Positions 2,759 to 64,000 of a DNA stretch of 64,000 nucleotides are shown here, piece by piece. How positions within the stretch are numbered: the stretch's first letter is position 1; each line of letters opens with the position of its first letter. The translations under genes and the position numbers were made by a program. The notes below the pieces were generated by a model. That model worked only from the letters and a program-made list of their open reading frames with translations, was not told the DNA's origin and made no database searches. This stretch comes from Lama glama (lineage: Eukaryota), in contig CM052816.1 of assembly GCA_028534125.1 (NCBI GenBank), forward strand, positions 69,008,001-69,072,000, given 5' to 3'.

Positions 2759-3059
2759 ATGAAGAGCCTCTTGCTGCTGGCCACGCTCCTGGTCCCTGCG
2801 CACCTGGCGGCGGCCTGGAGCACCAAGTACGCGGTGGACTGCCCCGAGCGCTGTGACAGTAACGAGTGCAAAAGCAGCCTGCGCTGTAAGAGGACAGTGC
2901 TGGACGACTGTGGCTGCTGCCGCGTGTGCGCCGCGGGGCTGGGAGAAACTTGCTACCGCACGGTCTCAGGCATGGATGGCGTCAAGTGTGGCCCCGGGCT
3001 GAGGTGTCAGTTTTACAGTGAGGAGGATGATTTTGGTGACGAGTTTGGTATCTGCAAAG
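2759..3059 (+). CDS. ESM1: Endothelial cell-specific molecule 1 (endocan), coding exon 1: signal peptide and Cys-rich IGFBP-like domain
   Basis: MKSLLLLATLLVPAHLAAAWS...CKRTVLDDCGCCRVCAAG...FGICK matches ESM1; AACATGA start context; donor AAAG/GTAAAG at 3059/3060 (phase 1, 301 nt). Confidence 0.98.
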
Positions 3060-5692
3060 GTAAAGAGTGGCCCCTTGTTTTCCCCCGCCCCGCCCAGGGC
3101 ATAGTGAGGGCTTTCAGCCAGCGTGGGAGGCAGGAGCCTTTCCTCCTACAGACAAAGAGGGAAAATGCAAGTGCGTTAGGTCCCCACAGGTGGTGTGGTG
3201 GGGAGAGAGAGAAAGAAAGATAACGCTGCACATTGTAGCTGAACCCAGTGTGCAGGAAAGCCCAGAAAGAAATACAGCATTTCACTCATTATATTTAGGA
3301 GATTAAAAAAAAAAGTTGCAATTGAAGATTGAGTTTCCTCCTTTCTGGAACACTTTAGGAACTTGACAGGTTATCTGTTACGGATGGTTTAGGTACTCTC
3401 TTCTGCAGACAGTGATTACAGAGGTCTGCACTCGGTAACCTGTTGGGAGAAGTGGCTAGCCCTGGGGTTTAGTGATTCTTTGATCTTAAAAGGGTCCACA
3501 GGTTGGAGGGCACCTCTCAAGACCAAATATTTCTGATGAACATTAATGCACTTTGTGAAATTGGGTGGCTTAAGTCATCTGGCAAAATGACCCACATTCT
3601 CAGAAGAGGTTGTCCTGGAGTATAAAACAAGCCTCATTCCACTTTATGAAAGGTTTGGATCATCTAGAAAAATAACAGATAGTGTAAGATAAGCAAAAAT
3701 AACAGTAAAGAAAAATAAAAATTGGAAGTCTGTAAAGAAAGAGGTTGGCAGTCTTACATACTTAAAGAAAAACCTTATTAGGTTGAAATGATAGATAAAC
3801 AATTTGGTTAAGCATTTGCAGAATTTATTTCAAACTTAGTGCTGTCGTTTAAAATCTTTAACATGTTTAGAATGGAAGGAATGGTGATTTAAAAATACTC
3901 TGTATGTGGATGCCTCATGATCTCATCCTTAAGAGTTAACTTTAAGATGCAACACATATATTATAGCCCTATTCATCAGTTTTATAATACAAATAAGCTT
4001 TTAAAATTAAAAGGACTGGAAAGTCTCTAAATCTTATTTTTATGGATTTAATATAAACTTTTTATGAATGATAATCATCCAGTATTGAGCTAATCTCAGT
4101 AACTTTTTTAGAAAAAATATTTTGTAAATCAATCACCTTTTAAGCCACAAAACATTCTAAAGTTTAGAAAATAAATTCTTGAACCATTGGGAAAATTTTA
4201 TTGTTTGCTTAGTTTATTTTTGTTTATAACCAATACAAACTAGAATATTGAGGAAACATTTTCTTTGATGGACTTTCATATACTGTTTCTTTCAGCTGAG
4301 TAGGATTTGCATTTTCTGTAAATTATAGGGCTTATCAGCCAAGAAAAAGTACTTCACATAAGGAAATTAGGGAGGAAGTGGTTAACACAGTCCTGTTTCT
4401 GATATAACAAGTATATGCCATGGATTGCTTTTTCTCTTGGCATAAAAATTGTCTCTGTAAGTGTGATTCTAAATGTTCAATTACATATGGAGAAAGAAAG
4501 AAGCTGTAAAGCATCCAGAGTCTTTAGCTCTCCAACATTCACTGAATGATTGAGGTAGCTGTTAATAAGATTTATTTTTTAAAGCTATTTAGGATAGCTC
4601 TTGGACATCCTTCAGACTGCAAGAGAGTCTAATTTCAAACATTTTTCTCTCTGCTGGAAATAGTGAGTCTGTGTGAACCTCGGCAGCTAGATAGAGACAT
4701 TATATTTTGCTCTAGGCAAACGCTCTCCTTCAGCTTTTCTACAGAACACTCCTAGGAAAACTGTATATTTTAGCTGCATATCCGGACGTTCTCTAAATAT
4801 TCAGATGTTTGGCATTGTGTTGCCCAGATAACAATCAGCCAGCCCACACATCATTATTGAACACCTACTATCTGCCCAGCAGTATTCAGTACATTCAGGA
4901 ATACAGTAGGAGCATAACTGAGAATTTGGCTAAAGTTTAAGTTTTCAGCATCACTGGAGACAGAATCCTATCCTGTGTGCTTTTCTGCTAGAGGCTTTTT
5001 CAGGATCGCTTTTCAGGACTGTTCTTCCCAGCAGAGTGGCCAGTGTTGAAAACCTGGTGCTTCTCTAATCTGAAGGATGCACGGTAGAGAAACTTTAAAT
5101 CTCTTTTCAAAATATATTTCATTAATACCTGTCTTGAGGAAGATTAGTTTGCTGAAGGCTCAGATGCCTCACATGTTGTTTCTTCACCCATATGTGATTG
5201 TACATTTACAAGGATAGTCTCCTGCCAAGAAAATATTCTACATCTATTCTCCTTGGCTGTTGAGGACTGGCTACTCTATTGAGATGCCGTTTACATTACA
5301 AAAAGCATGCATTTTAAATAAAGGAGTTTGTTCTCTTTTTCTCAATATGATATGTTTTAATCTAAGTATGAAAACATCGAAGCTCTAAAAGCTTTTGGAT
5401 TTTGGCAGGTATACAAATAAATTCTGAGCTTTCTTCATGTTTATCATATTGCATCTTAGCTCTGCAGAGGGTTTCATTAGTGCATCTTCTTAACGTCTGG
5501 AGAAGTTAGGTTAATTTGTCCTGCTCTTTTAATAAATAAGGAAGTTGCTAAGAGTTGGAGCAGACTGAGGATTGATCGCTTTATAAAGAGCGGAGATAGC
5601 AGCTTTCTTAGCCCCTGGTTAGTTTAAGCCAGTTTAGTTTCTATATATTTAGAACAGTAAATTGTCTGTGAGTACAGGGGATTGATTCAAAG

Positions 5693-5769
5693 ACCTTTTA
5701 AACTCTGTGAGGAGCTGACACACATGTCATCATACCTTTTAAACTCTGTGAGGAGCTGACACACATGTC
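5693..5769. repeat. 36-bp perfect direct duplication with 5-bp spacer in ESM1 intron 1
   Basis: ACCTTTTAAACTCTGTGAGGAGCTGACACACATGTC at 5693-5728 and 5734-5769, spacer ATCAT. Confidence 0.95.
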
Positions 5770-6140
5770 TGTTCAACTGCCCACGTTCACTGAGCTGTCA
5801 CAGAGGTAGCCCATGAGACCCTGTCTTTTGGTGTCTAAGCAGAAAGTAAATAGAATTAAAACTGGTTCAAGGATATTGATTATATGTATCTGTCTTCAGC
5901 TCAACTTCACAGCAAGATACTATAACTGGGGCGTTCATCATTATCTGGTCTTAGTGGGTGATTTCACGTATGTGATTTGAAGTTTTAATTTTCAAAGCCT
6001 GGGATTTTTTGAGAATTGGGTTTTATCTGATGGTCAGGATTCATGAGGTTTGTCAGTTCCTGAGTGCACCCAGGGGCTGTGAGGGTGGGCACTTCCACAC
6101 ATCCAGCAGCTCCCTCTCTCACCCTTCCCTTTGTCCTCAG

Positions 6141-6293
6141 ACTGCCCATACGGCACCTTCGGGATGGAATGCAAACAGACTTGCGACTGTCAGTCGGGCA
6201 TATGTGACAGGGTGACTGGCAAATGTCTGAAGTTTCCCTTCTTCCAATATTCAGTTGCCAAAGCGTCCAACCAGAGATTTGTTTCTCACACAG
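6141..6293 (+). CDS. ESM1: ESM1 coding exon 2: EGF-like Cys-rich segment and Phe-rich FPFFQY motif
   Basis: Pyrimidine tract plus CCTCAG acceptor at 6140; encodes (D)CPYGTFGMECKQTCDCQSGICDRVTGKCLKFPFFQYSVAKASNQRFVSHT; donor CAG/GTAAGA; 153 nt, phase 1-1. Confidence 0.97.
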
Positions 6294-6404
6294 GTAAGAA
6301 CCGATTCCCGGATAAATATTGAAACAATAATATTGTTTTCAGTTTGAATAACTTAAAAAATATGGCTAATAGAATAAGATGTTGATATAAGTGATTTTCT
6401 TGTT

Positions 6405-6549
6405 GGGGGAGGGTGTAGCTCAGTGGTAGAATGCGTGCTTAGCATGCACAAGGTCCTGGGTTCAATCCCCAGTACCTCTATTAAAAAAATAAGAAAATAA
6501 CCCTAATTACCTCCCCCCATACAAAAAAGGTAATAAAGTAAAAAAAAAA
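6405..6549 (+). mobile_element. tRNA-Ala-derived SINE (camelid vic-1-like) in ESM1 intron 2
   Basis: GGGGAGGGTGTAGCTCAGTGGTAGA (A box)...TTAGCAT...GGTTCAATCCC (B box), then CCTAATTACCTCCCC and an A-rich tail. Confidence 0.88.
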
Positions 6550-7620
6550 GGTTAAATAATTTTGTTTCTTTTATTTTACTTAGGGAATGGTGGGTGGTTG
6601 TTAAATCTTGTTGCTATTTTTCAGAGACCTCATTAATAATGTTGAAGATTATATTATTTTTCATACAGTTTACCCAATTTAGATGGGGGAAAAATATGAT
6701 TGAGTCCCAAAAAACGTGTAATAAAAATGAGCCAAGCTATGCAAAGTTCTTTAAGTTTTTCGGGGATCTGTTTTACTTACGAACCAGACAAAGCTGCTTG
6801 TCTCCCAATTCACACAGGAAAAGTACTCTGAGGAATTTATTGGATAAGACTTCAGAGAAGCCTCTTTACATAGAAAATATAAAACTTTTTTTAACCAAAT
6901 GGAAGTGTATAAATGGAATAATTCCAAGCATGTCTTTTTGTGGATTTGGGAGAGAATAAAAGTATCTGTGATTGGAATTTTGGAATTACCTCTAAACCTT
7001 TGAGTCAAAGTGTAGTAATACTCACACGCTGCTTGTTAGTGCTCGTGTAGTTCTCGTACAGGTTGTCAGAACGTGAGAAACAGTTGTAAGGTGTAAACTG
7101 TAAGATGATAGTAGGCACGTGTTCGGATATCTTGTTGACTAAATGGTTAGTAAAGCTTTATTAAATTGAAAATAGCTCATTTAAAACAACATGTAGCCGC
7201 AGCAACTAATAGTATCAGAAGAACTATATATGTTTCCTCCTTAGATAGAAATAGTTGACAATCCAAATCTATCTTAGTTTTTGATTCTGGTTCTTTGCAC
7301 TTCAAATTAATCAAGATTTGAAATATTTGGCAAATGTGCTTATTTCCAAGCTTTACCTCTTTCTTACACATGGGTACAGTTAAATACATCAGGATAAAGT
7401 GGGAAACACTGCATTTTTAAGTGATTATTATTTTTAAGTTCGACTATGCCCTTAAACATAAAAAATGGAAACTTTTTTTAACCATTAGGTGAATATCTTG
7501 GTGCATATTTGATCTGGAAATTGAGATCAGTATTAATATTTTAAATACTTATTATGACTTGTCCCTATAGTCTTTGAAAAGCAAAGTGGAAGAAAACTGA
7601 GTTTTAAGTTGTGAAAAAAA

Positions 7621-7821
7621 ATTTTTGAGGTGAAATTCACATGACATAAAATTGACCATTTTAAGATGTACAATTCAGTGGTATTTAGTACATTCACAGT
7701 GTTGCGTAGCCACCACCTCTGTCTAGTTCCAGAATACTTTTCTCAGCCCCAAATAAAACCAGTACCCATTAAGCAGTTACCCCCATTTCTCAGCCCCTAG
7801 CAACCACCAGATCTACTTTCT
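7621..7821 (-). mobile_element. Old L1 (L1MB-like) 3' UTR fragment
   Basis: TTTTGAGGTGAAATTCACAT...GTACAATTCAGTGGTATTTAGTACATTCACAGTGTTG...CCCTAGCAACCAC is typical antisense L1M 3' end sequence. Confidence 0.75.
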
Positions 7822-8288
7822 AAGACCAGAAAATTTTTTGAATGGCTTGATTGCTTTCAGTACAGCTTTGAGACCTATTGAATTCTCAGCATAACTAGCT
7901 ATCTCAAATACTTGCAACTTCTTTTGTCTTATTTTGCTTTCTTAAGGCCGTAGGCTAAAAAGAACATTAAGGGAACAACTTTCCAATTCCTCTTCACTCG
8001 TTTAAGATTGTACCTTAACCTTTTCCACCAAGAGAGAATTGAATCCCTGGTGAACCTTTATTGCTGTTTGGGATGTCTGGGGAGCCTCGAGAGTGCCTTT
8101 GAAATAATCCTCAATGATGCAACTTTCATGTCACCTCCATCCTTCTTGCTGCACACACAGTAGCATCCTTTCTCTTCTCCGCTGGACCACTGTGCCGTCC
8201 CTTTCCCTTGGCCCTGTCACCCGTCTCTCATTTGCTTGCAGATTCTGCAAAAATCTTGACCACTATATAGATGCCTTGGAAACAGATA

Positions 8289-8613
8289 CCGTTGACTCTT
8301 AAACGACATGGGTTTGAACTATGTGAGTCCACTTATATGTGTATTTTTTCCCCAATAAATATAGTATTTGTATTTTCATTTTACAGATCTTTAACTAGGT
8401 GTGGGGAAAAGGGTTTTTTCGATTAGAGATCACAATCTGTGGAGTCAAAAGAACTAGGGTTTGAGTCCTGATTCTATCCACACTGTTTCAGCTTCCTGCC
8501 CTTGAGTGAGTCATTCACCAGTTTCTTTGTTTTGGGGGCAGACAGCAGTAGGTGGATTTTCGACTGTGCAGAGGTCGGCACCCCCAATACCAGTGTTGTT
8601 CAAGGGGCAACTG
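8289..8613. mobile_element. Non-autonomous Tigger2/MER8-family (TcMar-Tigger) DNA transposon
   Basis: Terminal inverted repeats CCGTTGACTCTTAAACGACA ... TGTTGTTCAAGGGGCAACTG flanked by TA on both sides. Confidence 0.85.
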
Positions 8614-9888
8614 TATTTTGCTGGATGAAAGTTACACTAAAGGTGACACAAAAAATATTTCTATACCCAAATTAAGTATCAAGATTCTTATTAGAAATTT
8701 GTGGAAAAAGCATTTTCTGACCTAAGGTGTTTCCCTTTATGAGCTAAAGGAGCAACTGAGAGTGGCTATTGGTGTAATCTCGGTAAACCTGAGTCAGGTT
8801 CAGGATGGAAGGCAGAATATCCTAAAGACCTCTTGGAAAGTCTTTCCGGGAGCCCTTCTGTTCAGCTGTGCATTGTTCACGTGTGACTTCCTGGGCTTCA
8901 AGCACTACTGTTTACAGGAAGGGGCTTGGGGCCCTTGTCCTGCCATGGGCTTCACATCACCTCTGCACAAGTCCCTTTGGGCCCAGCCTTTGTAAATGGC
9001 ACCAAGGTTCCTCAGCACAGGGATTTCTGGTGGTGCCTTTTATGCTTTGATTGCATGAGGTGGTTTTTTTTTCTGACTGTCTATCTATTGGTTGCAACAT
9101 TCTTGACACGTGGGCTTCCTGGTTTCCCGTCTCCATTTGTTGTTGTTGTTGAGTAGTGGGCTCTCCAACTTTCCAAGAATGGGAATTTACAACCAACTCT
9201 TTTTTGGGGGAATGGGTAGTGGTAAGGTCTGGAAAGTTTCATGAATTTACATACATTTATCTGGTGGGCCATGCCAGTCTTCTCACAGCCTACCATTTCA
9301 GGAGGTGCACTGCTGAAGCAAACACACTTCCCTACTCTTAGAAGCAGAAAATTTCTTTTAAAAAAATATAACAGTGTTCTTTCTTATGTAGAGCAAGAAC
9401 TATCTTTATAAGTTCTGCCCTTTGGTCTGCCTTCTGCATTCTGAAGCCACATCAATAAGCTAATCCCTCTTCCATACCAGATAGGATAAGAATCTTACTT
9501 CGAGACCTATACTTACAGCACTTGCTCATTCTGTATTAATTAAGCACCTACTCTGTTCCAGGGTACTGTTGTACCAGTGCAGAAAACAAAGTCCCTGCTT
9601 TCATGGAGCTGATATTTTAGTGGTGGAGTGAGAAAATACAGGGGAAAAAAAGACAAATGCATGTATAGAATAATATCAGGTGATGACAGGTGAATGAAGA
9701 GAAATAATTCAAGGGGGTGCTAACTTAGATGGGAGGTCTCTCTAACAAGAGCAGGTGAGCACAGCATAGACTCTGAATCTGTTAGAGATTTCATTGTAGA
9801 TCTGTCATAATACAGAAATAAGACAAAAGTGTACTGGGTCTTGGAGTTATAAACATTTGGACAAGATGTGTATTCCTTCTAATTTCAG

Positions 9889-9989
9889 AGCATGATGTGG
9901 CCTCTGGAGATGGCAACGCTGTGAGAGAAGAACTCATGAAGGAGAATGCTGCCCGGTCTCCTGTAATGAAGTGGTTAAATCCACGCTGA
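9889..9989 (+). CDS. ESM1: ESM1 coding exon 3 with the glycosaminoglycan-attachment SGDG motif and stop codon
   Basis: TTTCAG acceptor at 9888; encodes (E)HDVASGDGNAVREELMKENAARSPVMKWLNPR-TGA; total CDS 555 nt = 184 aa. Confidence 0.97.
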
Positions 9990-23381: not shown

Positions 23382-23452
23382 AGCTTCTACTAGGATAATG
23401 GGGACAAAAAAGCATTTTGATAGACAGGGACAGGAATCAGACCCCCTGGAAA
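23382..23452 (+). repeat. 71-bp dispersed direct repeat, copy 1
   Basis: 70 of 71 nt identical to 25709-25779. Confidence 0.93.
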
Positions 23453-25708: not shown

Positions 25709-25779
25709 AGCTTCTACAAGGATAATGGGGACAAAAAAGCATTTTGATAGACAGGGACAGGAATCAGACCCCCTGGAAA
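25709..25779 (+). repeat. 71-bp dispersed direct repeat, copy 2
   Basis: AGCTTCTACAAGGATAATGGGGACAAAAAAGCATTTTGATAGACAGGGACAGGAATCAGACCCCCTGGAAA. Confidence 0.93.
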
Positions 25780-26108: not shown

Positions 26109-26235
26109 TCACAGAGAGAAAAATGTGACAATGAGTGTGTATATGTCCATGAATGACTGAAAAATTGTGCTGAACACTGGAATTTGACACAACATTGTAA
26201 AATGATTATAAATCAATAAAAAATGTTAAAAAAAA
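26109..26235 (+). mobile_element. Young ~125-nt L1 3'-tail insertion
   Basis: TCACAGAGAGAAAAATGTGACA...CTGAAAAATTGTGCT...CAATAAAAAATGTTAAAAAAAA; TSD-like AAA(T)ATGCCTG on both flanks. Confidence 0.8.
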
Positions 26236-26304
26236 TGCCTGCACACCAGAATCCAAAAATGCAGGCTAAGAAAGACATCTAATAAAATCAACAATTGGAA
26301 CATG

Positions 26305-27059: not shown

Positions 27060-27395
27060 ATGGAAGAAATAAATTCAAATGGATCAGTAAGCTTAATAAA
27101 TGTAAGTTGATTCCATCCCCCTTCATTAAAAAAAATAGACTCACAGAGAAAAAAATGTGACAACAAATATATACATGTTCATGTATAACTGAAAAATTGT
27201 GCTCTACACTGGAATTTGATACAACATTGTAAAATGATTATAAATCAATAAAAAATGTTAAAAAAAATAGAGGTTATTAGTTTGGATAACAGAACCCCCA
27301 AATCTATCTGTTTTCAAAAGTCATACTGTAAAATAAAGTGATAAAAAAGGTTGAAAATAAAGGAATGGAAAAAATATCTTGGGAAAATATGGATA
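27060..27395 (+). mobile_element. Ancient degraded L1 ORF2 (endonuclease N-terminus) relic, interrupted by a younger L1 tail
   Basis: TAAATGTAAGTTGATT...CCCAAATCTATCTGTTTTCAAAAGTCATAC...GTTGAAAATAAAGGAATGGAAAAAATAT resembles the LNVNGLN...ICCLQETH...LKIKGWKKI region. Confidence 0.55.
27141..27267 (+). mobile_element. Young ~125-nt L1 3'-tail insertion, second copy
   Basis: Highly similar to 26109-26235; TSD TTAAAAAAAATAGA on both flanks. Confidence 0.82.
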
Positions 27396-32605: not shown

Positions 32606-33105
32606 NNNNNNNNNNNNNNNNNNNNNNNNNNNNNNNNNNNNNNNNNNNNNNNNNNNNNNNNNNNNNNNNNNNNNNNNNNNNNNNNNNNNNNNNNNNNNNN
32701 NNNNNNNNNNNNNNNNNNNNNNNNNNNNNNNNNNNNNNNNNNNNNNNNNNNNNNNNNNNNNNNNNNNNNNNNNNNNNNNNNNNNNNNNNNNNNNNNNNNN
32801 NNNNNNNNNNNNNNNNNNNNNNNNNNNNNNNNNNNNNNNNNNNNNNNNNNNNNNNNNNNNNNNNNNNNNNNNNNNNNNNNNNNNNNNNNNNNNNNNNNNN
32901 NNNNNNNNNNNNNNNNNNNNNNNNNNNNNNNNNNNNNNNNNNNNNNNNNNNNNNNNNNNNNNNNNNNNNNNNNNNNNNNNNNNNNNNNNNNNNNNNNNNN
33001 NNNNNNNNNNNNNNNNNNNNNNNNNNNNNNNNNNNNNNNNNNNNNNNNNNNNNNNNNNNNNNNNNNNNNNNNNNNNNNNNNNNNNNNNNNNNNNNNNNNN
33101 NNNNN
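32606..33105. other. Assembly gap (500 N)
   Basis: Run of exactly 500 N. Confidence 0.99.
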
Positions 33106-51191: not shown

Positions 51192-51857
51192 TGTAGGCTA
51201 GCTGTTTTGGGACACAAAGGCAGCTTGTCGGTGACACGGTGACATGCAGGTTGGTAAAAGAATTTACTGGAGATAAAGTATGAGAATAGAAAAGGAGTTT
51301 ATTATGTTCCACTGTCATAGACAACAGTGGGCCACACAGATAAGGGGTGCCTGTGTGAGCGCCGAGGGCTGGTTGGTGGGGTCTTTTATAAAATTGGGTC
51401 TCAAGGTGCCTGATTGGCTAGTGCACAAGTCTCTGAGGTTGTAGGTGAGGTGAGAGGTTTAGGGCCTATGAAGGGCGGTGGGGTTTATGGCTCTGATAAG
51501 GTGGGCTGAAACAAGCCAGCCTGAGCTACTGTGAGATTAGGCATTAACTAGGGCTATTAGTTTGTTAGGGCAAACATGCCCAGTAAAGAATGTCCTTTGT
51601 TGAGGGATCATGGGCAGACATCCGAGATCCCAGAAATTGGGGTTGTTGGACTTCGAAGGATGTCAATTGACCTAACACTAGCTTCTCTGAAAAAGCAGAG
51701 GACTTGGCTACCTATAGCTTCCTTGCTTCTCTTCCAGAGAAGAGCAGATCCTCTTCCCTTAGAAGTCTCCCAGAAAGTTTCAAAATGGAAGTGACTGGCC
51801 CCATTTTTGGTCAAGTGCCCACCAGCCCGACCAACTACTGTGAGCTGGAAAGGTTAC
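51192..51857 (-). mobile_element. Solo ERV LTR-like element, antisense, upstream of CSPG4B
   Basis: On the minus strand: CCAAT (51417-51413), TATAAAA (51390-51384) and AATAAA (51303-51298) in U3-R-U5 order; TG...CA ends plausible, TSD not resolved. Confidence 0.55.
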
Positions 51858-52175
51858 AAAAGTTGGCGCTAGCTCCCATTTTCAACAAGGGGGTGGAGAG
51901 GCAGGGAGTGGGGAGCATTTCCCCTAGAGAAGTCGGGTGAGTCTCCCAGGAGAATGTAGGGTCTGGACAGATGAAACTTGTCTGCTCAGGGGTAAAACAA
52001 ATTACAGATCATCTGATAAAGGAAAGGTCAAAATTGGATTCTATGCTTAAACAGTACTTTATTACAGAACTAAAAAAGGAAAGGAAGGTGAAATAAAGTC
52101 ATCTCTAATTTGATTAGGAACAAAATATCACTAGCATTGATTGCACAAGCATCAGCATTTGGTCAAACACCGGTG

Positions 52176-52675
52176 NNNNNNNNNNNNNNNNNNNNNNNNN
52201 NNNNNNNNNNNNNNNNNNNNNNNNNNNNNNNNNNNNNNNNNNNNNNNNNNNNNNNNNNNNNNNNNNNNNNNNNNNNNNNNNNNNNNNNNNNNNNNNNNNN
52301 NNNNNNNNNNNNNNNNNNNNNNNNNNNNNNNNNNNNNNNNNNNNNNNNNNNNNNNNNNNNNNNNNNNNNNNNNNNNNNNNNNNNNNNNNNNNNNNNNNNN
52401 NNNNNNNNNNNNNNNNNNNNNNNNNNNNNNNNNNNNNNNNNNNNNNNNNNNNNNNNNNNNNNNNNNNNNNNNNNNNNNNNNNNNNNNNNNNNNNNNNNNN
52501 NNNNNNNNNNNNNNNNNNNNNNNNNNNNNNNNNNNNNNNNNNNNNNNNNNNNNNNNNNNNNNNNNNNNNNNNNNNNNNNNNNNNNNNNNNNNNNNNNNNN
52601 NNNNNNNNNNNNNNNNNNNNNNNNNNNNNNNNNNNNNNNNNNNNNNNNNNNNNNNNNNNNNNNNNNNNNNNNNNN
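52176..52675. other. Assembly gap (500 N) flanked by a ~347-bp duplicated overlap
   Basis: 51829-52175 reappears at 52676-53023 with three small differences. Confidence 0.97.
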
Positions 52676-53539
52676 GACCAACTACTGTGAGCTGGAAAGG
52701 TTACAAAAGTTGGCGCTAGCTCCCATTTTCAACAAGGGGGTGGAGAGGCAGGGAGTGGGGAGCATTTCCCCTAGAGAAGTCGGGTGAGTCTCCCAGGAGA
52801 ATGGAGGGGTCTGGACAGATGAAACTTGTCTGCTCAGGGGTAAAACAAATTACAGATCATCTGATAAAGAAAAGGTCAAAATTGGATTCTATGCTTAAAC
52901 AGTACTTTATTACAGAACTAAAAAAGGAAAGGAAGGTGAAATAAAGTCATCTCTAATTTGATTAGGAACAAAATATCACTAGCATTGATTGCACAAGCAT
53001 CAGCATTTGGTCAAACACCGGTGATGCACAGAACACGGCAGGGGAAACTGGCACACAGGGCTGATCTACAAGGCCTGTGGCTCTTGTCCCTCAAACCTGG
53101 TCCTTGTCAAGCTCCACTCAAGCCCATTTTCCCCAGAAGCCTCAGGCGTGGGTGGAGGCTTTCCCTCTCCATGAGTAAGTGCCCCGAATCAGGAGGTGAG
53201 TGTTCCTGCACAGGACTCTTGGGCTTTGATTAACGCATCGGATAGGCAGTTTTTCCAAAAAGTCGGTTAAATGATTTGAGGGACCGTCTTTTAAAATACA
53301 TAAAAATAAGGCTCACATTTGAGAAGGAATGATATCATCGTTTTTCTCCTCCCATTCATACTCATTCATCAAAACAATTGCTGGTGCCTATGCACCAGGT
53401 ATGCGTTGGGGATACAGCAGTAAGTTGGCGCTCACTCTGGCTCCTTAAAGCCGTGTTGGGTCCTACCTCCAGGAATGCTTCTCCCTCCAGCCTCCATTTC
53501 TCAACAGCGCCTGCTCACACACAACTCCATCACAGAACT

Positions 53540-54545
53540 CGCGGGGCAGGGCGGGGTACACGTACTCTCTCCCTACGGAGCCTGCCTGGGCGCTGGGCCC
53601 CCGGAAAAGGCCGTGCCCACGCCGCGGATCCCCGAGCGAGGCCGCGAGCGTGATGCGGCGCAACAGCTGCAGGGCGCCAGCCGCTCTGCCCGCCCCGGCT
53701 CAGCCCCCGCGCTGGTTGGGGGCGGTGCCCCCCGGCCCGGCTCCCGCTCTCGGCCGCGGGCGGGGAGGGGCCGGAGCAGGTAGCTGGGCCGCCGCCCGGG
53801 AGCGAGCACGGGGCGCGGGGCCGCCGCGGCGGGATGGGGCGGCTCGGGGCCCGCCGCCTCGTCCTGTTCGCCGCCTGCCTGGGGCTCTGCGGGGCGCTCG
53901 GAGGTACGCGCCCCCAACTTCCCTCTGCCCGTCCCTTCCCGGGAGGGCTGCGCGCGGAGCCCGCTAGGAGAGGGGCGCGAGCGGGGCGAGCGGGGAGGAG
54001 GCGCGGGCGGGGAGCGCCCTGTGTTCTGGGGGCCCCAGAAGTCGCCGCGGCCGGGCTGGTTCCGCGGCGACCGCGACTTGAACTCTCAGGCCGGGCCTTC
54101 GCAGGCGGGCAGCCGGGCAGCCGGGGGAGGAGACCAGTCGGCCCTGCGCGGTGGCTGCAGCGCCTCCGCGGGAACCTTCCAGCTCCCCTCCCCGCGCGGC
54201 CCGGCCCCTCCGACCCCGGCCAGTTCGCGAGCCCCCGGGGCGGGCCCGGCCCTGCCCTGCCCTGCCCTTCGCGCGGACTTCGCCACGAATTTGGGTTTCA
54301 GGGCCGGACGCTTGGTGGCACTCGGACGAGCAGAAGGAAGGCGTCCTGCTGTCCTCCCTTCTCAATCTTTTCAGCTCTGCTCCTTCCCTGGCCCCGGCCC
54401 CGGCCCGGGAGAGCTACTCGCCTGCATGTGACCCTCAGGGCTTTGAGGGCCTTAAACTCCTCGCCGAAACTCTTCGGTCGCTGGCGTATTATTCCTTAAG
54501 TCCTTCCACAGTCCGCTTGCATTTTCTGGACCCGATTCGCTGGAA
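53540..54545. promoter_or_regulatory. CSPG4B: CpG island / TATA-less promoter of CSPG4B with GC boxes
   Basis: Very GC- and CpG-rich; GGGCGGGG at about 53549 and 53758; spans exon 1. Confidence 0.88.
53834..53903 (+). CDS. CSPG4B: CSPG4-like (CSPG4B) coding exon 1: signal peptide
   Basis: Strong Kozak GGGATGG; MGRLGARRLVLFAACLGLCGALG with basic n-region and hydrophobic h-region; donor GAG/GTACGC is phase 1 and joins exon 2 in frame (..LG-A-SFYGES). Confidence 0.8.
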
Positions 54546-54891
54546 GTGCTTTACATTTTCATGGCGCTTTTCCGAAGTCAAAGATTATTAATAAAAGCAT
54601 AGTTGTTGAGACTTTTCACATAACTGAGCTCAACACTTGGTCTTTTCTGCTCTCCATGGCTCTTTGAAATTTAATTCAGCTTAACAAGACTTTCTTCTAG
54701 ACTCTTTAGAGAGCACGTTGTAGACCAAAGGCCTTGTAAATCTTTGTGGTGTTGGGATTAAATTCTGAACGCTTATTTACTTCATGTTAGGCGATTTCAC
54801 TAGAAGTTTTGGCGTAGTAGCCACACCTCACCTTCTCTCACCCCTGCGCCTGCCTCCTTCCAGCTCCTCCAGCTCTGAGTCAATCCTGCTG

Positions 54892-55030
54892 GGTTTTTGT
54901 TTTTGTTTTTGCAGCGGGGAGGTAACTAGGTTTATTTATTCGGTTCTTCAGTGGAGGTACTGGGGATTGAACCCAGGACCTCATGCACACTGATCATGCA
55001 CTCTACCGCTTGAGGTATACCCTCCTCCCC
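54892..55030 (-). mobile_element. tRNA-Ala-derived SINE (vic-1-like) with 12-bp TSD
   Basis: Reverse complement of the 6405 element; TSD TCAATCCTGCTG at 54880-54891 and 55031-55042. Confidence 0.9.
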
Positions 55031-55639
55031 TCAATCCTGCTGTTTTGAGGCCTTTCCAGGCTCCTCCGTCTTCGTCCTTCCTTCCTGATTCTTCCTTTGC
55101 CTGCCTCCACCGCCCCTTCTGGCCTGGCATGCAGGGTGGAACCGGCCAGGTCTAGGGGCCCAGGTGTGGGGCCGCTGTGATTGTGGCAGTGGTGTGGCTT
55201 TGAGAGAGGAGTTGCTAGCTGCAGGCCAGGGAGATTTGAGAGGGCAGAGAATGGCGCTGGGGGGCAGACTGGGTGGTGATGGGGCCTGAGCCAGTGACCC
55301 AAGTGGTCAGTGTAGGGTGATGGAAAGCCCATGGCTTTGGAGTCAGGTGGACTTGGGCTTCAATCTGGGTGCCACCGTATATATTCAGTGACTGGGACAA
55401 TTACTTCTCTTGGTCTTGATGTTGCACTTGTAAAACTGGGATGATAATTGTTTCTTCAGAGAAATTTGACTAAAATAGGTGTAAGACCTCCTAACAGCCT
55501 GACAACTACTCAGTGAATGCCCATTCCTCTCCTTTCCTCATCATCTGTGCAGTTAACCTGGCTATGAGGCAAAGAGCCAGTGGGTTAGATATCCATTTAG
55601 GGGTACAGAATGTGGATAAAGGAGATTTATTAAATAAAG

Positions 55640-55800
55640 AATTCTCCTAGAGCCTCCAGCAGGAATGCAGCCCTGCAGACACCTTGATTTTAACTCAGGG
55701 AGACCTATTTTGGACTTCTAACCTCTGGAACAGTGAGACAATAAATCTGTGTTATTTTAAGACATTACATTAGTGGCAATTGGTTATAGCAACGGGAAAT
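55640..55800 (+). mobile_element. MLT1B/C/D-like LTR 3' fragment
   Basis: ATTCTCCTAGAGCCTCCAG...CAGACACCTTGATTTT...GGACTTCTAACCTC...GTGAGACAATAAATCTGTGTT. Confidence 0.8.
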
Positions 55801-56383
55801 TTATAGAGGGAGTTTCTGTCCTAGTAAAAGAGATCATACAAAGGGCCATATAATTCTGACAGAAGATGACACATGTCGCCAGAGAGGGATGAGGGGCTGG
55901 GAGCCTTAGGGAAGTTTCTGTCTCTGTGCAGAGTGAGCCTGGCTCCAGCACCTACTCCAAAGGCTGTGGCTGGGACCTGGAAAGCTCCCAGCCAGTGGTG
56001 GAGAAAGCATAGACCTGTATAAATGTCACATGTGGCACATTCAGATTAGGACAGAGGCTCTGCTGTCACTAAGGAGGTAGTTGTCAGCTCAGCTGGGGCT
56101 GGCCAGGGACCAGGACGGCCTCACTGCTTCATTCCAGGGGGCACTACAGGAATCTACAGCGTCTGCAGGAGTAGTTCCCCCTGGAGTTGTGCGGGACACA
56201 GTCTGCACAACTGTTGGCAGCAGGCTTACAGCATGCCCTATTGAGAGGGGGTTCGGGCAGGGCAATGCTGGCGTTGTCTTTGCAACCTGAGCAGTTGGCC
56301 TGGAGACTGATGTTTTTCTTATTAGGTCACTAATCCACCTCCTGATACTACCTGGCACACTGGAGGTGCTCCATCTAGTGAAT

Positions 56384-56432
56384 CAAACAAAACAAAACAA
56401 AACAAACAAACAAACAAAAAAAAAACAAAAAA
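56384..56432. repeat. (CAAA/CAAAA)n A-rich simple repeat
   Basis: Direct reading. Confidence 0.85.
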
Positions 56433-57639
56433 ACTCTAATACAAACCAAAATCAAACAAGAACCCAAAATAATATAGGTTGGAAGAAGGAATGGAAACTA
56501 GTTCTAAGGTAGATAAAACCAATAATATAATCACCTACCTGGGAGATATTATAGAGAAATGGAAATTCTTACCTTCCATGAAGAGCATTTTACCCACTTC
56601 ACTGTCAAGCTATGGCTTCTATTCAAACATTTCACCTTTTTCTTAAGCATACAGAACCAGGAAGTCGCTCTGATTTTTGTTCAGCTTGATTTGCTACACG
56701 CATATAGTACCAAAACATGCCTTGTCCTTCACTGCAGGTGGAGATCACCTTTCTTTTCCTATGAACCAGTTTTACTTGTGCTTCTGTTTGCTTTTTCTTA
56801 CTATTTTGAGGTGTTTACCATGGGCCACAAAAGTTAGGGTCAATTCGGAGGTGAGGACAAAAACCAGCTTCAATCTGGCAAACCATAAGTTTTAAACCTG
56901 CTTCCTTGTTTTTCCCCTGAGGTGATGGAAATTTCTAGCTACCAGCTGAAACTGGAATTGATGTAGTGCCAGAGGTGAAATGTGGGAAAATAGAAGGATG
57001 TTGTTTATTAAGGTTACTTAGCCATTCTCGGCAGTAGATTTTATGATTTAGAAAACATTTCCTGGTTTTGAAAACTTAACAATATAGCCTGTCAAAAATT
57101 GGAGCGGGGGATTCAGTAATGGGAAGGCCAGGAGGATAAACTAAGATAGTGGGTTTGTAATTGTTTGTTTCAACTTTATGACCACATCCCTACATTATAA
57201 TTTTATTGAGTTTAATCATCAATGGCTGTTTTTAAATAGAGAAGAGGGTGCTTATGCATATCTGAGAAAATCTGTAACAGATCATATTCATCTCTCTATC
57301 AGCTTCGCATCTTGGTAAAAACACTGCCTTGGTGATTGGGAATGCTTAATTTTTGTCTTAGTTCTGTTTCTGAGTAACTGTTGACTTGACATAAGTCCAG
57401 AAGCTTCTTTAGGCTTGAGTTTACTCAACTATAAATTGAGGGTCCACTAGGTTAGTTCAGTTTGGTTCAATAAATGACTGCTCACTACCTATCCATCTTA
57501 CCTAGACTGGACTCCCTAGAGAGAGAGGCCTAAGGAGGGATTCTTCTGCAAGAAACTCCTGATCTACCCCTGTTCTCAGACCCATAGATTATGATTCCTG
57601 GAGACACAACAGGAGGTGTGTGAAGAGCTATAACTTAAA

Positions 57640-59760
57640 GACCATGTAAAGATCTTTCACTTAAAGTGTCGATAATGCCTGGAGGATGGAACCCACCCTG
57701 ATAGAGCACTGCTTCTGAGCTGGTGATCCAACCATTCCTTCATTAGGCTTTTCAGCAATCTCCCAGGCCTGCAGCTTCAGGGGTGTAGTACATGATAGGA
57801 CCAGAGGGTCCCGTGGTCTTCGGCTCATTACCATACCTCCTTGGGAGTGAAAAGGGTGTGCCTTGGATTGAGGTGATGTTATTTGGCATCCCATGTTAGT
57901 GGATTAAACACTCCATGATCTCTCAGATCATGGTGCTAGTAGCGCCCTGCAAGCAAGAAAGGCAAATATATACCTAGAATTTGTGTCTATTTTTGTTGAA
58001 ATGAATCATGGCTATTCCAAGGAGAAAGGGTTTCACTGATGTCAACTTGCCACCCCTCTTGAAGGGATGGGAACCTACTAGATTCTCTTAGAGGCATGTT
58101 GGGCATTCAGTAGGAGCATAGCTAAGAAAGCCTTGGTAAGAGCGAGCCCAGGCCATTGGGTATATGCACAGACTCGTCCTTCACCACCATGGCTACTTCA
58201 TCATGCACCCATTGTGGCAATTATAGGGGTGGCCAATGACGGAAGCTAGCTGATGGCAACTAGCCAACTCATTTTGTCAGCCTGATGGTTTAGTGTCTCT
58301 TGTGTGGTAGATGTTTTCTGGTGGGCATTAACATGCAATATAAAGATTTTCTCACTTCACACTGATACTCAGGCGTCCATCCCAGACCTTCTTGTCCCTG
58401 CTCTTTCAATCTTTCTCATTCTAGGCTCCTGACCATCTGACTGGGCCATTTGCCGCTATTTATAAGTCTTTATTTATTCTAACCGCAAGCCACTTCTCTC
58501 TCCTTATAAAGTGGGTGATTAGGTGTACCACCCAAAGTTCTTCCCTGTGGAGGATTTTCCCTCACTATTGTTTTTCACGGCTACCCCTAGGGGGAGCTGT
58601 AGTGCAGCTGGAGTCCATTTTCAACTTGCACACTTACGATGATGCTCACTCATCCATGCACCAAGCTCAGGTGTTTTACTCTTCTATCAGCTGGTAATAA
58701 GGGATTTCCTGGTGCAGCCGCATGTGTGAGCTGAGGAAAAGGTGCTGGCTCGAGAATGGTGCTGACATGGAGCCCTGGGCCATCATCTCTTGTAGCTTGC
58801 TTGTGCCTTCTGGTCCTATTCATGTTCCATCCTGGACGTACCACCTCCACCCCTTCAATCTCTGCTTCCACCATCTGTCATGGCGACTCTGTCATGTGTG
58901 TCTTACCTAGAGTGGGTCATTACACTTTCTGTGCTTCTAGGAGCCACCTTAGCAGTGAGTTCACAGCATTTCCAGCAGTCTTTGCCAGCAAGCTATATCC
59001 TGAATCCCTGGAGAGTGCCCCCCCATCTATTATGAACTCTTTCTGATTCAACTTTATGTCCCTGCCCCTTTGATCAGTTACCCACAGTCCCCTGTGCATT
59101 CTCCCAGCTGCTGGCACTACATTCCGGGTAGGTCCTCCAGCAACATTAGAGTCTAGTCCTTTCCTTCCCATATCAAGCCCAACGTGTCCCTACACAGGTT
59201 ATGTGGCTTAAGTTTTTGGTCTAGTGGCCAGGAAGAGAGATGGGGCGTATCTTCAGGGGTTCCATGTTACCTGTGGGGAGAGGTCTCCACATCCTCTTTA
59301 AGCGAGGGGAGTGCTACCCTTAACAGGGGAATAGGTCACTTTTTCAGGCTCAGAGGGCTCAGAGGGATCTAGGGACCCAAGATATTTGAATGCACCAATC
59401 CACATGTTCCCATTCCATATGTCAAGTTTACGTTCTTTCCCAAACAAGGCCTTAGACTCGTCAGAGCCAGCCTGTCATGGTTGGGACTTTAACCTTATTT
59501 GGAGCTATTTACTCTGATGATTAATTCCTGGATGGGAGTTTCAACTTCTTCTGCCTACTTGCTTAGGAGATAAGAAAGATACATGCTACCAGGGAAGCTC
59601 TTTGACTTTCACACTTGGCTTGTAATTGTCGACTAATCTCTCTTCGTTTTTCCTTATCTTTTCCAAAGCTTCATTTCAAACTTAGCGATAAACACCCAAT
59701 TCCATTGTCCTCATCGTTACTATTTGCCCTGTATTTTTCATAGCTTGATATTCCACAGCT
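57640..59760 (-). mobile_element. Degraded ERVL/MaLR internal region (gag, RNase H and integrase remnants) in CSPG4B intron 1
   Basis: Minus ORF 58920-59171 DQRGRDIKLNQKEFIIDGGALSRDSGYSLLAK resembles ERVL gag; RNase H-like sequence near 58530-58620 and integrase-like sequence near 57760-57890; many frame breaks. Confidence 0.75.
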
Positions 59761-60125
59761 GTCTAACGTGTTACACAAGCTCAACACCAGTGACTTCAGA
59801 TTAACCCCTGTGGAATAAAAGGAAGCAGTACTGGGTGGAGGGAGAAGTAGTTTTGCAATTCAGTTTTAGTAGAAACCTCTGCCACCCACCTTGAGAGTTC
59901 TGAAGGGGGACTGACCGATCAGAGGTGTCCTGACTTGGGGCAAGAGAACACTGAGCCTTTATGCTCCCAGGACAGATTGGTGGGCTACCCCAGGAAGCAA
60001 ATATGGCCTTGGGCAAGGCAGCTGTCTTCAGCAGGGTCAGTCCCTGAAGGAAAATGAAAATATAAAGTGGAACAGTCATTTTGGAATAAATTGACTAACT
60101 TTAATACTTCTGTTTTTTCCCCTAG

Positions 60126-60289
60126 CATCTTTTTATGGTGAAAGCTACGTGGAGCTCAACATCATAGAAGTTTCCTCTGAGTTATCTCTTCACTTAAAAT
60201 TTCAAACCAGCAAACCACAGGGATTACTTTTTCTTGCAGCTGGGAAAAATGACTACTGCATAATAGAACTTCTATCAGGAAACTTACGG
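60126..60289 (+). CDS. CSPG4B: CSPG4B coding exon 2: start of laminin G domain 1
   Basis: TTTTTTCCCCTAG acceptor; (A)SFYGESYVELNIIEVSSELSLHLKFQTSKPQGLLFLAAGKNDYCIIELLSGNLR aligns with CSPG4 ASFFGENHLEV...LLLLAAG...LYSGRLQ; donor CGG/GTAAGG; 164 nt. Confidence 0.93.
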
Positions 60290-60611
60290 GTAAGGTTTTT
60301 AAAAATCTTTAAAAACGTATAAGCATTCAGTTACTGGAGGGAAGAACAGTGAAAGAAAAGAGAATAAATACAGCTATCCATTTGATTACTACTATTTCAC
60401 TCAAATAAAACCATGTAAGGGTTAAGATCTTCTCCAGTTTTACCAGCATGTCTAAATACTCTGACTCTGAAATTTTTTAACCTCAACATGTAGCCCATAG
60501 ACGTGGGAAGAGCTTCCATGTCCAAGTTTCTCTTTTATTTGTGAATGGCCTTGTTTTCTCAATAAAACACTATGAGATGAGATTGATTAATTATGATTCT
60601 TTCTCTTTCAG

Positions 60612-63600
60612 GTGAGAGTGAATTTGGGTACAGGTGAACAAGTGTTCCTCTCTGAGCAAAGACTTCGTGTGGATGACTTGGTTTGGCATTTAGTGGAACT
60701 GCACTGTGTTAAGGGTAATATCTCTCTGGTTATTGACAAACGCTATGAGACAACTGGCCAGGTCATCAGTGGGATGCACAATTTGCACTTTCAGCATGGA
60801 ATCTACATCGCAGGCCATGGTGGCCTTGAGGTCCCTTACCTCGATGGAGAGCTCCCCAATTTCCGTGGGTGTATGGAGGATGTGATATTTAACCAGAGGG
60901 AGATCCTCACATCCCTTAGATCTTACCCTGGTTTCAAGAAAGTTTATGAGGTGTCACTAGGATGCAGTGATGAATTTTTTGCAGGGGAGGATGAAGCCAT
61001 CAATTTCTTTAGCTCCAGATCCTACGTCACCTTCCCAGAATGGAGGGTGCAAGGGGACGGGCTGTTGGAATTTGCTTTGCAGACTGGAACTCATCAAGCC
61101 TTGCTGTTATTTCAGTCTGGTAGAGAAGGAGATTTTGTTGCTTTGGAAATAGTTAAAGGTTTATTGAAGGCTCATGTAGGAAGAAATAAGAATGATACTC
61201 AGCTCTCTTCTTATAGCTTAGTTAGTGACAACAAGTGGCACATTGTTCAACTCAAGTTCACTGAAAGGTATCTGGGCCTGATGGTGGATGAACAAGGAGT
61301 AAGGACTTTGCTGCCTCTTCAAAGCAAACCATTTGTGTCTGAAGGCCACCTCTTCCTAGGAGGTCTTGATAACCACAAGGAAGAAGAAGTTAAGAGGTTA
61401 GAGCTTGCCTCTGTGCCTAGGAAATCTGCTCGAGCAATCTCTTTCAAAGGGTGCCTAAGAGGCTTGGAAGCCAACTCAGAAAAGAGAGCATTAAAGGGCG
61501 CACTTGTTTCCAAAGATATATCTGCTGGCTGTAAAATGAAGAGTAGTGATGAAGAGACTCGTTCTGTAACAGCAACGGAAAACCTGCTTGAGGCACAAGT
61601 TCCCCTGTCCACTGCCGTCCCTGAGGCAGGCAAGCCTTTTCTGCAAGATGTGAGTAGCTATTTCTTGGTTCTGAATAACTTGGAGGTTCAAGAAGGTGGG
61701 CAAGCCTTACTGGAACAAAGGCATATGAAGGTGGATGTGGAGTTGAAGGATTTGGGTATCCATCAGATACTATTTAAAATAAAGGAAATGCCTATTCATG
61801 GATTCCTTCGATTAGATGTTTGCCCTGAGCAAAAAATGGAGAAGGCTTTTACTCTGTTAGATTTGAGCCAAGGAAAAGTTTGGTACATCCATGATGGTTC
61901 AGAAGACCCGAGGGATTATTTCACATTTTCAGTCTCTTCCAGCAGCGAGAAGGAAGTGCCATTGTATCTTCAAGGACATGGTTCATTTGTGTTCAACATC
62001 ATCATCGTTCCAGTAAATGATCCCCCAAACCTTACGCTCCCTGAAGGAAACTTGCTTCTCGTGTTTGAGAACTCTAAGAAACGACTGACTCCAAATATCA
62101 TACATGTGTCAGACCCAGACACAGATTCTTCAAGTCTTAGTTTTTCAGTTCTTGGCAACTTCCATTCAGATGCTGGGTTTTTAGAAAACACCAATGACCC
62201 TGGGAGAGCCATTAGTGGTTTTACACATGGGGATTTAAGAGGTGGCAACATTTTCTGTGTGCACCGGGGCCATCGGAACTCCCGGATTCTCCTAAGAGCA
62301 AGTGATGGAGAGCTGGTTAGCAATACGGTGGTGTTACGGGTCATTGCTGTTCCTTGGGACTTTGAAGTGGCCAACAGAACCGGTGTGGTCGTACAGCAGG
62401 GTGGCACGGTTCTGATTACGCAGAGCAACTTGTCAGTGGAGGTTAATGGTGAACGCCCGGAGGTGGAGACCCGCTATGTTGTCACTCATGCACCTCAGTT
62501 TGGCCAGATTCAGCGGCAGGGGTCAAGTGGAGAGTGGAAACAAGTGAGTATCTTTTCTCAGCGTTCAATTGATCAGGGTCGGGTCCGGTACTCCAGTATA
62601 TTCCAGGAATTGCAGCTAAAAAACATTACTGATCACTTTAAATTTAAAGTTAATATAGAAGGAAAAAGCAGTGAAGAGCTGATGTTTCCCATTACCATAC
62701 AATGGCTAACATTTACCCTTCTGAAAAATGTTCCTCTTGAGATCAGTGAAATAAACAGGCACGTACTGAATTCAGATCATTTGCAGGCTGTGACAGAGGG
62801 TGTGGACATAGCCGAAGCGGAACTACATTTTAAGTTACTCACCACACCTAAGAAAGGAAAATTGCTACTTGACACAAAAGTTCTAAAAACAAACTCAGTC
62901 TTCAGCCAACAAAACATTACAGACTTCAAGATAAATTATGAACTACAGGAGAGACCCAGGAAAGATTCACAAGATACTTTCAGGTTCTTGATGATTGCAA
63001 AACACATAGAATCAAATAATTATACTTTCAGAATAAACATTAATGCAGATAAGATGCACATTATTTTAACAAACAGGGGATTGTTTGTAAAAGAAGGGGA
63101 AGGGAAATTAATTACAAGATCAGAATTATTTGCTGAAACATTGGACAATCAGACCTTCCAATATAAAATCACCAAGAGTCCTCAACACGGGAAGCTGAAA
63201 CTGATTAGCTCTTCAGAGTCTCTGGGAAGTCATGACAATATTTCCACATTCACCGATCAGGACATCCTGGATGAGCGGCTGATGTATGTGCATGATGACT
63301 CTGAGACCCAGTGTGATGAATTCCTCCTTGTGGCCTCCCCTACAGGACCAGGCCAGGAGGGAGTGGCCAGGGATCTCCGTAGGGAGCATCTGTCCGCAGA
63401 GATCAAGGTCACTGTTTCTGTGGAGTTAAAGAATGATGAGAAACCGGTGCGCGTGGTGGATAAAGTCTTTCACATTGTGCGGAACAGCCAGCGCTTACTA
63501 ACCCTAGCAGATCTCTGTTACCATGACCCGGATTCCGATTTTGACGATGGGCAGTTGCTCTACACCCGGCGGGGCATCCCGAATGGGGACTTGGTGCGAG

Positions 63601-64000
63601 CCAGTGACCCGACTCAGAAACTGTACCAGTTCAGGCAGGACGACCTGCGGGCGGGGCACGTGCTCTTCAGGCATCGAGGTGCGGACTTCGCCCGCTTTGT
63701 GCTGTTTGTGACAGACGGTGTCCACACTACATCGTCCCTTCTCGAGGTCAGTGTGTCAGACCCCTACGTGCGTATAGCCAACAACACGGGGCTGCTCGTG
63801 CAGAGAGGAAAGGACAGCAGCCTAACGACTGCCAATCTCAGTGTCACCACAAACCAAGATGTCAGAACAGATGGCGAGATCAGATTCCACATTGCGTGGC
63901 CTCCAGAGCATGGCAGAGTGCTGGTCAGCAGCTCAAGGGCTGGCTCATTCTCTCTACATGACTTGAAGCAAGGACATGTGATTTATAGGCATGACGGCAG
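60612..64000 (+). CDS. CSPG4B: CSPG4B giant exon 3 (partial, runs off window): remainder of LamG1, LamG2 and several CSPG/cadherin-like repeats
   Basis: TTCTCTTTCAG acceptor; hand translation shows about 1129 codons without a stop: VRVNLGTGE...NFRGCMEDV...LGCSDEF...SFKGCLR...LEVQEGG...YIHDGSE...PVNDPP...YVHDDSE...YRHDG. Confidence 0.95.
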   Translation, partial: MRVNLGTGEQVFLSEQRLRVDDLVWHLVELHCVKGNISLVIDKRYETTGQVISGMHNLHFQHGIYIAGHGGLEVPYLDGELPNFRGCMEDVIFNQREILTSLRSYPGFKKVYEVSLGCSDEFFAGEDEAINFFSSRSYVTFPEWRVQGDGLLEFALQTGTHQALLLFQSGREGDFVALEIVKGLLKAHVGRNKNDTQLSSYSLVSDNKWHIVQLKFTERYLGLMVDEQGVRTLLPLQSKPFVSEGHLFLGGLDNHKEEEVKRLELASVPRKSARAISFKGCLRGLEANSEKRALKGALVSKDISAGCKMKSSDEETRSVTATENLLEAQVPLSTAVPEAGKPFLQDVSSYFLVLNNLEVQEGGQALLEQRHMKVDVELKDLGIHQILFKIKEMPIHGFLRLDVCPEQKMEKAFTLLDLSQGKVWYIHDGSEDPRDYFTFSVSSSSEKEVPLYLQGHGSFVFNIIIVPVNDPPNLTLPEGNLLLVFENSKKRLTPNIIHVSDPDTDSSSLSFSVLGNFHSDAGFLENTNDPGRAISGFTHGDLRGGNIFCVHRGHRNSRILLRASDGELVSNTVVLRVIAVPWDFEVANRTGVVVQQGGTVLITQSNLSVEVNGERPEVETRYVVTHAPQFGQIQRQGSSGEWKQVSIFSQRSIDQGRVRYSSIFQELQLKNITDHFKFKVNIEGKSSEELMFPITIQWLTFTLLKNVPLEISEINRHVLNSDHLQAVTEGVDIAEAELHFKLLTTPKKGKLLLDTKVLKTNSVFSQQNITDFKINYELQERPRKDSQDTFRFLMIAKHIESNNYTFRININADKMHIILTNRGLFVKEGEGKLITRSELFAETLDNQTFQYKITKSPQHGKLKLISSSESLGSHDNISTFTDQDILDERLMYVHDDSETQCDEFLLVASPTGPGQEGVARDLRREHLSAEIKVTVSVELKNDEKPVRVVDKVFHIVRNSQRLLTLADLCYHDPDSDFDDGQLLYTRRGIPNGDLVRASDPTQKLYQFRQDDLRAGHVLFRHRGADFARFVLFVTDGVHTTSSLLEVSVSDPYVRIANNTGLLVQRGKDSSLTTANLSVTTNQDVRTDGEIRFHIAWPPEHGRVLVSSSRAGSFSLHDLKQGHVIYRHDG

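Follow-up and report, generated by a model that had tools for sequence, protein, structure and literature searches.

The stretch of DNA analyzed here (hereafter "the window") comprises 64,000 nucleotides of Lama glama (contig CM052816.1, positions 69,008,001 to 69,072,000), and carries on its forward strand an intact ESM1 (endocan) gene followed, 44 kb behind it and on the same strand, by exons that we assign to CSPG4B. Evidence for ESM1 (2759-9989, +; coding exons 2759-3059, 6141-6293 and 9889-9989; 184 aa) includes an IGFBP domain, a spliced frame, and 96% identity to the corresponding segment of P0167. This model, from a carnivore cluster, joins ESM1 and CSPG4B exon 2 in one protein and so has the same gene order. 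The initial annotation of this DNA had placed the CSPG4-like gene beside ESM1, as the intact neighbor bears out, and human CSPG4BP presumably adjoins ESM1 as well.

Three exons of CSPG4B lie on the plus strand before the window ends. Exon 1 (53834-53903, 70 nt) begins with an ATG at 53834, encodes the signal peptide and ends at the donor GTACGC; intron 1 (53904-60125, GT-AG, phase 1) leads to exon 2 (60126-60289, 164 nt; acceptor ...CCCCTAG, donor GTAAGG), where LamG domain 1 begins and whose peptide is 100% identical to an alpaca model across 57 aa; and intron 2 (60290-60611, GT-AG, phase 0) is followed by a giant exon 3 (60612-64000, acceptor ...CTTTCAG) that runs stop-free for 3389 nt to the window end, with a remainder of about 58 codons expected from a camel model. 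Joined by scripted splicing, these exons gave 3623 coding bases, or 1207 codons, with zero stops, reproducing the coordinates and the codon count that had been claimed for three in-phase exons with canonical splice sites. Among 12 combinations of alternative starts, GTs and AGs near the exons, only 2 were stop-free, and the exon set first proposed is the combination that fits orthologues (97.5% identity to P0002 over 1209 columns). At local base composition, 1129 codons would run on without a stop by chance with a probability of about 1e-29, and once frames may have open ends and lack a start codon, the exon 3 frame (60597-63998) is the longest ORF of the window. Its absence from the ORF track, as had been suspected, is an effect of ORF listing because there is no stop inside the window. 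The exons are real.

The start of the gene lies within a CpG island (53520-54400; GC 0.767, CpG observed/expected 0.87), which we infer to be the probable promoter. The exon 1 peptide fits the N-terminus in 31 of the 57 mammalian models examined, and has a basic start and a hydrophobic core (11-residue hydropathy of 2.76) typed as a signal peptide by hydropathy. Three models (P0172, P0418, P0130) replace the GC-rich exon 1 by a start of 215-264 residues stitched from upstream and intron 1 sequence (51785-51937, 53474-53675, 54232-54546, 59016-59237), and these substitute N-termini look spurious. A 348-base stretch some 0.8 kb ahead of exon 1 occurs twice at 99% identity (51829-52175 and 52676-53023) on either side of a 500-N gap (52176-52675), which suggests a spurious duplication where contigs were joined; another 500-N gap lies at 32606-33105. 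Between ESM1 and CSPG4B we also observed short direct repeats, at 26109-26236 and 27141-27268 (90% over 128 bases) and at 23382-23452 and 25709-25779 (99% over 71 bases).

Evaluating the encoded domains, we found two LamG stretches (PF02210, 108.8 bits) and seven Cadherin_3/CSPG stretches (PF16184) by Pfam in exon 3, the latter number being that reached before the window end as against 14 in camel P0122. LamG domain 2 lies at 61083-61478 (+; PF02210, residues 163-294 of P0001) and CSPG repeat 1 at 61641-62012 (+), for which an AlphaFold model (mean pLDDT 80.7) matched human CSPG4 repeat 1 (7ML7) with a Z of 15.0 and an rmsd of 2.2 Å over 122 residues. Repeat 1 is also, going by the titles of entries 7ML7 and 7N8X, the part of human CSPG4 that was solved with C. 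difficile toxin B. The proposed CSPG4-type architecture of signal peptide, two LamG domains, CSPG repeats and giant third exon was thus found, and it is that of complete CSPG4B (camels, cattle, rodents, birds, fish), a type I membrane protein of about 2400 aa that consists of a signal peptide, two LamG domains, roughly 14-15 CSPG repeats, one transmembrane helix (residues 2268-2295 in camel P0122) and a tail of about 100 aa ending in QYWV. Among the 120 long orthologues listed of 482 matches, 118 possess the membrane helix and 116 the YWV end. A crude scan for Ser-Gly pairs returned five in the window part, none of them in acidic context, and two pairs with acidic context in the C-terminal part of the camel protein. 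In NG2, according to the available portions of PMC5767725, matrix and growth factors are ligands of the LamG domains and repeats, the region next to the membrane can be released by shedding, and the tail binds PDZ scaffolds; by analogy with NG2, complete CSPG4B would link extracellular matrix ligands to intracellular PDZ scaffolds. As a separate observation, camel and hippo models occur in 2338- and 2396-aa forms (P0002 and P0004 versus P0122) that differ by 58 residues directly after exon 3, possibly a skipped exon 4.

To place this gene among its relatives, a search of long proteins returned 482 matches, of which the 120 listed range over mammals, birds, reptiles and amphibians and include a sturgeon. 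A quick maximum-likelihood tree (IQ-TREE; 38 rows trimmed to the exon 3 part) placed the window with the Cspg4b proteins of mouse and rat and with killifish cspg4ba (SH-aLRT 99), and shark, fish, newt and amniote CSPG4 formed a separate clade (SH-aLRT 100), from which the split between CSPG4B and CSPG4 dates to before the bony-vertebrate radiation. Human CSPG4 was not itself a tree row, so that the CSPG4 clade was anchored by bit scores: against human CSPG4 (7ML7) the window scored 334 and mouse Cspg4b 343, versus 743 and 672 for CSPG4-clade rows. A croaker row named CSPG4 fell inside the B clade on a long branch from a partial match, and database names are unreliable here. An identical architecture and QYWV end, together with several database entries named just "chondroitin sulfate proteoglycan 4", might suggest CSPG4 (NG2) itself or a copy recently duplicated from it, but the tree, the scores and the adjoining ESM1 refute that reading, which we regard as next to impossible. 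From these comparisons the llama stretch is assigned to exons 1-3 of CSPG4B, an ancient vertebrate paralogue of NG2/CSPG4; this agrees with the identity first put forward, as does the coding status then claimed for mouse (NP_001365627.1), and the protein did not group with CSPG4 proper.

The cluster nearest to the window carries Camelus dromedarius names, with full-length members P0122 and P0124 (2396 aa). These Camelus-type models share the same three exons and are 97.5% identical, differing by 28 or 33 substitutions per 1207 residues, by the absence of a 2-codon deletion, and by being full length. The Vicugna pacos model XP_031529350.1 (P0172) matches the window at 872 of 876 residues and has the same 2-residue deletion, and P0131 is identical to the window at all 239 shared residues; by this comparison the window is of the South American camelid type. 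The deletion (6 bp, in-frame; site 61761-61766, +) falls in repeat 1 between H462 and Q463, with its junction at 61763/61764, and is common to the window and the alpaca model but absent from Camelus-type models. One of the lost residues is a Ser that is kept in 49 of 49 therian rows and aligned to Ser in human CSPG4. In the repeat 1 model the gap follows a short helix and precedes the next strand, and the repeat is predicted still to fold despite it, although such models are insensitive to two-residue losses and this one gives no sign that the loss is harmful.

Beyond this shared deletion, XP_031529350.1 differs from the window by a frameshift: two bases present in the window (63075-63076, +) are lost there, such that P0172 is out of frame from residue 899 and meets a stop 19 codons on, a C-terminus that among the small indels tried was reproduced only by this 2-base loss. 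P0418 splices round the exon 3 frameshift. All three models (P0172, P0131, P0418) end before the membrane helix, and their best 19-residue hydropathy is 1.29-1.45, versus 3.06 in camel P0122. P0131 and P0418 end in ...QTR, directly before camel W2219 and 49 residues ahead of the helix. Since W2219 (Trp in 83 of 108 full-length orthologues by alignment count) lies inside the last exon, which covers approximately residues 1713-2396 judging by unspliced Logan ORFs P0484-P0489 from other mammals, this end is not an exon edge. A Trp codon is one base from a stop, and a nonsense change is the simplest reading of these protein models. P0418 is identical to P0172 across 914 aa and to P0131 across 951 aa, so the three share one haplotype and count once. 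No full-length protein of the window's haplotype was found among the 12 members of the nearest cluster or the 2 of the P0172 cluster; a short-protein search with the camel tail gave 57 matches (best 82%), none of them a camelid fragment across W2219; and two metagenome-contig scans for host DNA yielded 52 and 267 pattern matches, none of which was confirmed. Published alpaca references, as described in the available part of PMC6598621, come from a single animal and include 454 reads, and errors or private alleles are therefore possible. For the dromedary, a "chondroitin sulfate proteoglycan 4-like" gene (LOC105087163) appears in a low-heterozygosity candidate sweep region in Table 5 of PMC6761857.

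We then compared the pace of change in the two camelid lineages. With 49 therian outgroups, derived substitutions numbered 29 in the window lineage versus 14 in Camelus (p = 0.03); with 9 close outgroups the counts were 13 versus 12 in the window part and 17 versus 8 in P0131. Conserved sites took 8 of the 29 changes versus 6 of the 14 (p = 0.49), revealing no enrichment. As for expression, 20 of the 24 sequencing runs listed held at least half of the exon 3 words (14 at 0.54-0.56 and 6 at 0.89-0.91). Four runs, all from one study, are recorded as RNA and hold 0.56 of exon 3 words each, as expected from related species. The rat and mouse clusters contain Logan proteins roughly 2190 aa long that span exons (P0138, P0164), which points to spliced CSPG4B transcripts there, and differential expression of CSPG4B is given for bovine fetal testis and hamster hypothalamus in the portions available of PMC12863962 and PMC8804604, respectively.

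Among primates, the mouse lemur has a 2402-aa model and the sifaka an intact tail. The simian entries found are last-exon fragments of 147-259 aa, from marmoset and from 15 listed members of an Old World monkey cluster of 21, and no simian occurred among the 120 long matches listed of 482 or among 105 mid-length matches. All 16 simian fragments carry an altered stretch before the helix, 15 with the exact motif and one with a substitution, and 8 of 8 positions of this stretch agree with the lemur peptide read in the +1 frame. Because marmoset and Old World monkeys share the lesion, the simian loss predates the split between New and Old World monkeys. The claim that humans lost the gene stands as to a pseudogene in human (symbol CSPG4BP, a table row in the available part of PMC13192780), and was too narrow in its scope. 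Outside primates, the blue, Rice's and right whale models are either cut short or split and that of the humpback is flagged low quality with one-residue gaps, such that all four named baleen-whale species inspected have split or corrected models; reindeer yielded pieces of 120 and 177 aa. These gene models suggest further losses of CSPG4B. Horse and toothed whales, absent among the matches listed, were not counted as losses.

How to read the llama gene depends on weighing its open 5' half against the broken models nearest to it. We give an even chance, more than to any other reading, to CSPG4B decaying in the llama lineage, such that selection would have relaxed recently, a last-exon stop just before the membrane helix would have removed anchor and tail, and further lesions, for example the frameshift of the alpaca haplotype, would then have followed. 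The stop in the llama's own genome, which we infer, would lie beyond the window; a gene early in decay would still keep an open 5' half, and decay, if occurring, would therefore have begun recently. Such decay would account for three of three nearest-haplotype models (P0172, P0131, P0418) ending without a membrane helix, for the P0172 frameshift and the invariant Ser lost in both that model and the window, and for the lean of derived changes, and it would add to the losses seen in simians and in baleen-whale models. Set against it, the window shows neither stop nor frameshift in 1207 codons and keeps canonical splice sites, lacks that haplotype's frameshift and differs from it at 4 of 876 residues; the three broken models amount to one haplotype, and gene models may also end at assembly gaps; the rate excess is fragile (13 versus 12 with close outgroups, and p = 0.49 at conserved sites); and repeat 1 is predicted to fold.

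Much of this would be expected if CSPG4B were fully intact and membrane-anchored and the alpaca lesions were assembly errors or private alleles, a reading that falls short of an even chance and that we nonetheless take seriously. Zero disabling changes in 3623 coding bases, a CpG-island start, complete Camelus-type models (P0122, P0124), the near-constant helix and YWV end of the long orthologues listed, and four RNA runs from one study at the related-species level all fit it; two separate lesions in the nearest haplotype, the invariant Ser lost in window and alpaca alike, and the failure to find a full-length model of the window's haplotype among nearest-cluster members do not. Accordingly, of the earlier statement that the gene is intact and functional, the 1207 open codons stand, but the nearest-haplotype models lack the helix, which would refute it if their stop is shared, and "intact and functional" in the llama is more likely wrong than right. 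A pre-helix stop fixed in South American camelids could instead leave a working, secreted, ectodomain-only CSPG4B resembling shed NG2. Last-exon stops escape nonsense-mediated decay, and a stop placed here would therefore let the ectodomain be secreted, sparing the signal peptide, both LamG domains and the repeats, in keeping with the open 5' half of the window. Soluble CSPG4 from shedding is described in the available portions of PMC5767725. We nevertheless hold a working secreted product to be very unlikely: the exon 3 frameshift of the same haplotype would destroy it, and the helix and QYWV tail are conserved from fish to camels, so that the anchored form is the one maintained by selection. 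Returning to decay, its widest form would make CSPG4B a 400-million-year-old gene repeatedly lost (in simians, baleen whales and perhaps deer) and South American camelids mid-loss, with open and frameshifted alleles coexisting and an anchor-less open allele constitutively secreting an NG2-like ectodomain; this full scenario we consider rather unlikely.

As a gene find, the locus carries little weight. CSPG4B is already annotated in mouse, rat, cattle, pig and camels and is present across bony vertebrates, and the novelty implied at the outset was overstated, with full-length orthologues in all 120 listed rows. The description of the protein as poorly characterized holds up: literature mentions, as far as the available text goes, are a gene-list entry or a one-line guess, and CSPG4B function is not studied in the portions available of PMC12863962, PMC8804604, PMC13192780, PMC6761857 and PMC9791103. 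Searches of largely open-access literature for CSPG4B loss in primates, mammals or camelids found nothing relevant, the papers listed dealing with antibodies, cancer or C. difficile or with the Y chromosome, although supplementary gene-loss tables may list the gene; the text of a camelid-wide comparison (PMC12127551) contains neither CSPG nor chondroitin, with CSPG4 and ESM1 only as list rows across six supplements. Because the helix and PDZ end have been retained from fish through mammals, CSPG4B could mask NG2-knockout phenotypes in mouse and zebrafish, and phenotypes masked in this way would not translate to people. The value of the locus rests on a possible repeated and ongoing loss of CSPG4B, as read from gene models. 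If the repeated losses are true, intact camels versus broken alpaca-type haplotypes would provide a close lineage pair for probing the purpose of the protein.

Compared with known systems, close named counterparts are mouse Cspg4b (NP_001365627.1, UniProt F6RXI4) and rat Cspg4b (NP_001127982.2), which fall in the same clade with the same N-terminus and domain order and 67% identity over exon 3; the rodent proteins extend in full through the QYWV tail, whereas the llama lineage possesses the 2-residue repeat 1 deletion and its nearest models lack the membrane helix. Human CSPG4BP, at chr5:54.80-54.85 Mb in the available part of PMC13192780, is the orthologous locus, but the simian gene is long dead, with only the frameshifted last-exon fragments found. 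Human CSPG4/NG2 (7ML7, 7N8X) shares the two LamG domains and CSPG repeats of the same fold, and, going by the available portions of PMC5767725, has a helix and PDZ-binding end as complete CSPG4B orthologues do, whereas it belongs to a separate clade whose rows are 32-36% identical to the window.
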